From Escherichia coli (GTDB lineage Bacteria > Pseudomonadota > Gammaproteobacteria > Enterobacterales > Enterobacteriaceae): a stretch of DNA of 64,000 nucleotides. Below are positions 25,172 through 25,266 of the stretch, piece after piece. How positions within the stretch are numbered: position 1 is the stretch's first letter; each line of letters opens with the position of its first letter. Where the stretch lies: the NCBI RefSeq assembly GCF_013122565.1, contig NZ_CP053258.1; one strand, given 5' to 3'. The position numbers and the translations under genes are program-made. The notes beneath the pieces were generated by a model that did no database searches, had not been told where the DNA came from, and was given only the letters and a program-made list of their open reading frames with translations.

Positions 25172-25266
25172 TTTTCCCCTCACCCCGGCCCTCCCCCTGT
25201 CTCTTGATCAGGAGATCTGATCAAGAGACAGCTCCCTGAGGGAGAGGGTTAGGGGGAGGGGGCGCA
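25172..25266. repeat. Imperfect ~95 bp palindrome with transposon-inside-end-like core
   Basis: Core CTGTCTCTTGATCAG-GAG-ATCTGATCAAGAGACAG flanked by G/C-rich inverted arms; see findings. Confidence 0.6.

Follow-up and report, generated by a model that had tools for sequence, protein, structure and literature searches.

How does a palindrome of some 95 bp come to stand between lldD and trmL, and what is the transposon-like sequence at its centre? In the window (the whole stretch of DNA analysed, 64,000 nucleotides) trmL (24644–25117) and lldD (25272–26462) both lie on the minus strand, separated by an intergenic spacer of 154 bp (25118–25271, no strand assigned). A first-pass annotation located the palindrome at 25172–25266, where the sequence is as it was described. 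The centre was described there as resembling two abutting inverted inside ends of IS50, and the whole was considered as possibly a miniature inverted-repeat element or excision footprint, a construction scar, or a structured RNA at the 3' end of the lld transcript.

We observe a palindromic core of 35 bp, CTGTCTCTTGATCAG-GAGAT-CTGATCAAGAGACAG, at 25197–25231 (plus strand). According to the inverted-repeat analysis its arms (25197–25211 and 25217–25231, 15 nt each) are 100% complementary across a gap of 5 nt, and the outer arms (25176–25198 and 25239–25261, 23 nt) are 78% complementary. The sequence CTGTCTCTTGATCAG occurs twice in the 64-kb window, against a chance expectation of 0.04 with at most two mismatches. 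The three GATC sites noticed earlier fall inside the core, at 25206–25209, 25214–25217 and 25219–25222.

The donor of the core

To compare the core with a genuine IS50, we located one by tblastn with the Tn5 transposase, in plasmid pMAK2 (locus L013). This copy starts with CTGACTCTTATACACAAGT and ends with ...GGGATCAAGATCTGATCAAGAGACAG immediately before aph(3')-IIa, its inside end lying at about 1676–1694 of the locus. Its last bases, ...AGATCTGATCAAGAGACAG, confirm the inside end given in the first-pass annotation. On the minus strand, one arm of the core (CTGTCTCTTGATCAGATCT, 25231–25213) matches this inside end at 19/19 positions and the other arm at 15/19, with the Dam (GATC) sites in matching positions. 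The alignment to the IS50 terminus thus holds for one full transposon end, but the identity stops at base pair 19: the interior of IS50, which encodes the transposase C-terminus ...AQGIKI-stop, reads ...GGGATCAAGATCTGATCAAGAGACAG, whereas the window reads GTCTCTTGATCAGGAGATCTGATCAAGAGACAG and does not continue as IS50.

A different donor is indicated by BLAST of the region against 5,426 complete E. coli genomes, in which the core also matched the 3' ends of IS4/Tn5-family transposase genes. Of its 35 bp, 33 (GTCTCTTGATCAGGAGATCTGATCAAGAGACAG, 25199–25231, plus strand) coincide with the extreme right end of ISEc13, that is, with the codons S-L-D-Q-E-I-stop and the terminal inverted repeat; the identity is 33/33 with the copies at L007, L009, L010, L011, L044 and L045. 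The transposase of ISEc13 ends in ...V-M-K-S-L-D-Q-E-I-stop, and the S-L-D-Q codons form the inner arm while the terminal inverted repeat forms the outer one, which makes the palindrome native to a single ISEc13 end. The core is thus not a pair of independent ends that were brought together: in a single right end, transposase codons already supply the 5-bp spacer and 13 of the 15 bp of the supposed second end. The one addition is the outermost dinucleotide CT (25197–25198, plus strand), which matches the two bases with which the ISEc13 left end begins and lengthens the native 13-bp arm to 15 bp. Given 33/33 identity with the ISEc13 right end and identity with IS50 over 19 bp only, the donor was of the ISEc13 type and not IS50, and the core, judged by its sequence, is a remnant of an ISEc13-type element. 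The earlier suggestion of a transposon remnant or excision footprint was thus right as to the class of explanation and wrong as to the donor.

ISEc13, a DDE-transposase element of the IS4 family and the IS50/Tn5 group, is 1,550 bp long, with target duplications of 8–9 bp, a left end CTGTCTCTTATACAC and a right end ...AAGTCTCTTGATCAGGAGATCTGATCAAGAGACAG; the left terminus is outside-end-like, CTGTCTCTTATACACAA(A/G)T. Its 457-aa open reading frame, named 'IS4-like element ISEc13 family transposase' in RefSeq, is 39% identical to the Tn5 transposase over the full length (E 1e-96), a distance that separates the donor from IS50 along with the ISEc13-specific interior of the core. Core and ISEc13 right end have in common the 19-bp terminal repeat, a native subterminal hairpin of 13 bp and a target in a G/C-rich hairpin loop. 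It differs from the complete element in lacking the transposase gene and the outside-end-like left terminus, of which apparently only CT was kept, and in that its 9-bp duplication is incomplete. In the literature searched, ISEc13 appears in lists of mobile elements only, with no account of its ends or targets, and a search for the inside-end 19-mer returned only mentions of primers or constructs.

The termini of ISEc13 (compared at 1271–1293 of L010 and 1263–1285 of L011) and IS50 (159–177 of L013) are nearly identical despite the 39% identity of their transposases. Besides the right end, which equals the IS50 inside end at 19/19 positions, the ISEc13 left end CTGTCTCTTATACACAAGT equals the IS50 outside end with T at position 4, the same change as in the laboratory 'mosaic end'.

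The outer arms and the alleles of the spacer

The G/C-rich arms around the core had been taken for a part of the element. A synthetic query joining the two arms finds a median of five matches per E. coli genome, so that the arms belong to a dispersed repeat. Compared with the published motifs, they are copies #17 and #18 of BoxC, an intrastrand-triplex repeat later called PIT and TMECO ('triplex motif E. coli'). In MG1655, TMECO #17 (CCCTCTCCCTGAGGGAGAGGGTTAGGGTGAGGGG, 3,781,061–3,781,028) and TMECO #18 (CCCTCGCCCCTCCGGGGAGAGGGCCGGGGTGAGGGG, 3,781,121–3,781,156) are listed as an inverted pair (PMC4666352, Table 1), and both sets of coordinates fall inside the K-12 lldD-trmL spacer at 3,781,018–3,781,214. 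The right arm of the window, CTCCC-TGA-GGGAGAGGG-TTA-GGGGGAGGGGG (25232–25262, plus strand), is BoxC/TMECO #17 minus the first four bases of the C-stem; as CTCCC-TGA-GGGAGAGGG-TTA-GGGGGAGGG it follows the BoxC/PIT/TMECO pattern CCCTCNCCC-N3-6-GGGNGAGGG-N3-GGGNGAGGG, with the C-stem apparently cut by the insertion. The left arm, CCCCTCACCC-CGG-CCCTC(C)CC (25176–25196, plus strand), consists of two blocks of TMECO #18 on the complementary strand, as aligned with the 197-bp allele of K-12. What is foreign to BoxC is the 35-bp centre.

The spacer exists in alleles of at least five lengths: 47, 72, 153/154, 185 and 197 bp. The 153/154-bp allele is that of the window genome and of BL21, the 185-bp allele that of O157-like strains, and the 197-bp allele that of K-12 MG1655. 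The 185- and 197-bp alleles lack the core and carry two TMECO motifs with a linker of 59 bp between them by the published coordinates. In the window allele the core stands in place of about 77 bp, comprising the linker together with block three of #18 and the initial 4 bp of #17. This variability agrees with the report that TMECO loci are unusually variable among E. coli strains, and that small parts of palindromic TMECO pairs are often deleted while hairpin formation is retained (PMC4666352). The BoxC pair itself is an insertion/deletion polymorphism here, as follows from a 47-bp spacer without any BoxC (469–515 in both L004 and L005) and a 72-bp spacer with only the outermost C-rich block (469–540 in L003); loci L003–L005 come from E. 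coli MS1170, S1-THA-01-A and SCU-115. An interpretation in which K-12 carries an insertion of 72 bp and a duplication of 9 bp (CCCTCTCCC) was dropped, because the literature describes the region as an inverted TMECO pair with a linker. A synthetic query for an uninterrupted single-BoxC allele gave, among its best 30 matches, only two-piece alignments to 185-bp alleles.

With carriers defined by coverage of 80% or more of a 111-bp query spanning both junctions, the window allele is present in 796 of the 5,426 complete E. coli genomes (about 15%) and absent from K-12, so that this spacer is not universal. The matches listed include the named strains BL21, REL606 (both B), W and ATCC 8739, and isolates from humans, livestock, wildlife, water and food. 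Among 40 rows taken at even spacing from 1,907 records, about 17 were 35/35 matches to the core, the rest being 33-bp matches at IS4-family transposase genes. As the number of full matches is thus close to that of the 796 allele carriers, there is essentially one solo locus in E. coli.

Targets of intact elements and solo cores at other loci

Is the position of the core at the centre of a G/C-rich palindrome a coincidence? Intact copies of ISEc13 lie in similar surroundings. In strain SCU-101 the element occupies the hairpin loop CCCC[CTGTAAGAC]AGGGGG with a 9-bp duplication, and a plasmid copy occupies CCCCT[CCTTCGGG]AGGG with a duplication of 8 bp. Perfect duplications flank the copies in the zntA-tusA spacer of EPEC E2348/69 (CCCCT[CGCTCCTCT]GGGGAGAGGG-TTA-GGGTGAGGGG, 9 bp) and in uvrB-yvcK of strain A25 (CCCCTCGCCCCT[CCGGAGAG]AGGG-TTA-GGGTGAGGGG, 8 bp), and the former target (L044, NC_011601.1 3857196–3860892) closely resembles K-12 TMECO #16. 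Of 12 non-redundant IS ends, 10 have a run of at least three G that begins 2–11 nt past the right end, as do 11 of 12 solo cores; the background at random positions is 12% (binomial p ~4e-8 and ~1e-9, respectively). This enrichment and the intact copies in hairpins indicate that BoxC hairpins are genuine and preferred targets of ISEc13, which accounts for the place of the core in the middle of one.

Several other copies deserve mention. EPEC E2348/69 holds about 30 of them. In Budvicia aquatica DSM 5075 (L018–L025), where the copies lie at contig ends and only right flanks could be read, at least six ISEc13-like ends, lying in both orientations, adjoin GTTGAAAAAC or its reverse complement GTTTTTCAAC with GGGG after it; this suggests that the element aims at a species-specific hairpin repeat. 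In Rahnella perminowiae (892–1172 of L033) we observe a 281-bp two-ended internal-deletion derivative of an ISEc13-like element, a MITE-like mini-element with the left end CTGACTCTTATACACAAATCCCC and a 7–8-bp direct repeat GCGAAGG(G/T) in a hairpin CCCCT-GCGA-AGGGG.

The core also recurs without the rest of the element. An exact search with the 33-mer, which leaves the position of CT or AA free, in a single genome from each species found 23 loci, 12 of them preceded by IS sequence (transposase C-terminal codons ...GAA) and 11 solo; the former are 11 ordinary IS ends and one remnant of 85 bp. At 10 of the 11 solo loci the 33-mer is preceded by CT, which gives a 35-bp core identical to that of the window in five other species: Serratia silvae (five loci), Escherichia sp. 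MOD1-EC7003 (two), and S. proteamaculans, Salmonella enterica subsp. diarizonae and B. aquatica (one each). With the E. coli locus added, CT stands at 11 of 12 solo sites, where the sequence internal to the IS has AA, and the solo cores are therefore not random truncations. A metagenome scan for solo cores added one further locus, in two samples. Most solo cores lie within BoxC-like palindromes or other G/C-rich hairpins.

The flanks of the solo cores are less regular. None of the sites in E. coli, in the genome scan or in the metagenomes has an intact 9-bp direct duplication, and a scripted search for such repeats with offsets allowed reached 6/9 at best. At several Serratia and Rahnella-like sites the flanks are inverted copies of each other with complementary loops (ACA/TGT in L030, GCGA/TCGC in L042). 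Comparison of filled with empty sites gave no clean pair at the two MOD1-EC7003 loci: downstream of folA (L039) E. coli carries unrelated DNA, strain HH97 included, and L040 has no E. coli homologue. The solo core of S. enterica subsp. diarizonae (L037) and a degenerate ISEc13 on an E. coli plasmid (L009, NZ_JBLWKH010000005.1) have common flanks, ...AAAACCCCCAGCCAGGCT and GGCTATGCCGGAGG, and at this apparently identical site the 5-bp centre of the core is inverted in one relative to the other. A solo core of Budvicia (L022) adjoins the same flanking sequence on one side.

Formation of the core and its significance

What could be the mechanism that turns an insertion sequence into such a remnant? 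We consider it likely that the core is an IS fossil, left by an ISEc13 insertion in BoxC that underwent near-precise collapse and small slippage deletions. The order and mechanism of these deletions can be reconstructed as follows. An ISEc13-type element would have entered the lldD-trmL spacer at the BoxC/TMECO #17 hairpin, within its loop region, duplicating about 9 bp, CTCCCTGAG. The 7-mer GTCTCTT is present in direct orientation at positions 3–9 of the ISEc13 left end and at positions 33–27 from the right end, and slippage or a template switch between these repeats would delete 1,515 bp of the element and leave CT plus the last 33 bp. This predicted product equals the observed 35-bp palindrome, so that the repeats lie where a nearly precise excision would need them. 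Small deletions would have followed, at the cost of 5 bp of the left duplication as well as the linker and block three of TMECO #18. Slippage at a pair of CTG repeats, with loss of the 5 bp CTGAG, together with a deletion from the CCCTCTCC(C) repeat of #18 to that of #17 would yield the structure of the window, and the remnant would then have been inherited in a subset of E. coli.

Retention of the left tip predicts the CT that 11 of the 12 solo sites carry. The flanks retain traces of the putative duplication. The probable copy CTCCCTGAG, the first nine bases of the right arm (25232–25262, plus strand), has the same position relative to TMECO #17 as the target duplication of the intact copy in E2348/69 (compare also L045). 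The left flank is best kept in the ws5-3 allele, GGCCCTCTCC|CTGTCTC, with CTCC (4/9) and the ancestral T at the left junction. The earlier statement that no 9-bp duplication flanks the palindrome thus holds in that there is no intact pair of copies, but it overlooks a right flank placed like a normal ISEc13 duplication and a left flank that keeps four of the nine bases.

Other observations weigh against slippage as the whole account. A simple nearly precise excision predicts intact flanking duplications, which occur at no solo core; the E. coli allele requires two or more additional deletions; and the 5-bp centre lies in opposite directions between the flanks of L037 and L009. Nor does slippage account for the AG that adjoins the core at 5 of the 11 CT-bearing genome-scan sites (the window, in reverse complement, L027, L028, L030 and L032). 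An uncollapsed ISEc13 at lldD-trmL was sought with two chimeric queries, one per orientation, and was not found.

The closest known parallel to the proposed collapse is the nearly precise excision of Tn10, reportedly described by Ross, Swan & Kleckner in 1979 and by Foster et al. in 1981, in which deletion between short direct repeats near the inverted termini is said to leave a small palindromic remnant with both copies of the target duplication kept, independently of RecA and transposase. By analogy, the ISEc13 core may likewise be a short palindrome in which two transposon tips were joined when the DNA between short direct repeats was deleted. The systems differ, however, in that Tn10 is a composite transposon with inverted IS10s of 1.3 kb and a direct repeat of 24 bp, whereas ISEc13 is a single insertion sequence with terminal repeats of 9 bp and a direct repeat of 7 bp; moreover, the flanking duplication is not intact at the ISEc13 core, for which the mechanism is read from the sequence only.

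The main rival of the slippage model, or its complement, is palindrome growth by template switching: a deletion would leave the ISEc13 right end with its native 13-bp hairpin, and switches would extend and homogenise the arms, change AA to CT and copy the flank in inverted orientation. Truncated right-end remnants of 85–126 bp, which could be the starting material, do exist (L026; H61–H69). The inverted flanks with complementary loops at the Serratia and Rahnella-like sites point to template switching or palindrome homogenisation and not to plain slippage. According to PMC8604942 and PMC13100816, the arms of inverted repeats become homogenised and longer through template switching, and their spacers are inverted by it. 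The absence of an intact duplication, the inverted flanks and the centre inverted between L037 and L009 are all among these reported outcomes, and the alternative is kept for that reason. It does not, however, predict the uniformity of the product (35 bp, with CT at 11 of 12 sites), which slippage at GTCTCTT yields in one step, and perfect homogenisation leaves unexplained the residual asymmetries of 2–9 nt beside the core (AG or CT); the flanks of the E. coli allele, too, better fit a partial direct duplication. As the origin of the core, template switching of this kind therefore appears possible but rather unlikely. Fold-back or hairpin-primed models with perfectly inverted flanks fit L030 and L042 only up to discrepancies of 2–5 nt and were not adopted as the main model.

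Could the 35-bp unit instead be a miniature mobile element, mobilised in trans through its two inside-end-like termini by an ISEc13-type transposase with a preference for hairpin loops? Both arms are oriented as proper transposon ends; identical 35-bp units stand at many loci in several genera, including five in one S. silvae genome whose only IS sequence among the exact-match loci is an 85-bp remnant; and the 281-bp Rahnella derivative is a two-ended relative with a target duplication. Like bacterial MITEs, the unit is short, non-coding and intergenic, with IS-derived terminal inverted repeats. At 35 bp, however, it falls far under the usual MITE size, and its ends overlap, the left arm agreeing with the inside end at only 15/19 positions. 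Given the length constraints known for Tn5, two 19-bp transposase sites, which would overlap in 35 bp, would probably be unable to loop into a synapse. Dispersed copies, each with its own duplication, are what defines a MITE, but none of the five S. silvae copies has one, although intact IS copies and the 281-bp element do, and E. coli has essentially a single locus. Mobility of the unit, which the first-pass annotation had entertained, is thus improbable.

A functional RNA or DNA element is very improbable, whether as a regulator of trmL or as a hairpin that terminates or stabilises the lldPRD transcript at its 3' end. Folding of the transcribed minus strand does give a long hairpin (-89.6 kcal/mol, z = -6.0 relative to shuffled sequences), but any long palindrome folds well, and this one is followed by GGGGAAAAGG with no U-tract, unlike an intrinsic terminator. 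The sole terminator-like match on the transcribed strand (25246–25232) is a 5-bp inner stem followed by core sequence, in a search with two matches against 0.6 expected. A scan of the region found no promoter-like sites, and Rfam returned no family at gathering score, its only matches being miRNA-hairpin models at 20–28 bits (the best a eukaryotic miRNA hairpin, 28.5 bits against a gathering score of 80). The structured RNA that had been proposed finds no support, and earlier work reported BoxC/PIT elements to be without promoter or terminator activity (PMC4666352). Absence from 85% of E. coli, at a hypervariable TMECO locus, leads us to regard the core as probably a neutral scar with no function.

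A scar of laboratory construction or Tn5 mutagenesis, which the ubiquity of the 19-bp inside end in the laboratory and the presence of the allele in the B strains BL21 and REL606 might suggest, is excluded by the occurrence of the allele in 796 natural and laboratory genomes, by the continuation of the sequence past 19 bp as ISEc13 and not IS50, and by the same core in wild Serratia, Salmonella and Budvicia.

Returning to the IS fossil, its components are all of known kinds: a terminal remnant of an IS4-family element, BoxC/TMECO repeats and excision-type deletions. In the literature searched we found no description of the lldD-trmL remnant, of the recurrence of one 35-bp product across genera, or of a preference of IS50-group elements for hairpin loops, BoxC included. 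We put forward, tentatively and at somewhat less than even chances, the general proposition that ISEc13-type elements target G/C-rich hairpin loops, those of BoxC/TMECO among them, and recurrently collapse there to one 35-bp palindrome via slippage or template switching at their own terminal hairpin. If true, such collapse would contribute, so far unrecognised, to a hypervariability of TMECO loci across Enterobacterales that has had no explanation, and the 35-mer would be a diagnostic footprint of past insertions. The remnant also joins two topics unlinked in the literature searched: BoxC/TMECO instability, reported without a mechanism, and hairpin-loop-inserting IS50-group elements that leave a characteristic scar.

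On the practical side, the Tn5-like palindrome in the chromosomes of BL21, REL606, W and ATCC 8739 should be read as a natural IS fossil and not as an engineering artefact. The 35-mer could mark past ISEc13 activity, the lldD-trmL polymorphism could serve strain typing, and the apparent targeting of hairpin loops by a relative of Tn5 is relevant to how DDE transposases choose their targets. The remnant is probably of no consequence for lldD and trmL biology.

The spacer contains a second hairpin, CTGCCCCC-TTAGTGC-GGGGGCAG, at 25119–25141 of the window, directly upstream of the trmL start codon. It is unchanged in all 11 aligned spacer alleles while the remaining spacer is hypervariable, and its 3' arm on the mRNA strand includes a Shine-Dalgarno-like AAGGGGG; this hairpin may control the translation of trmL.
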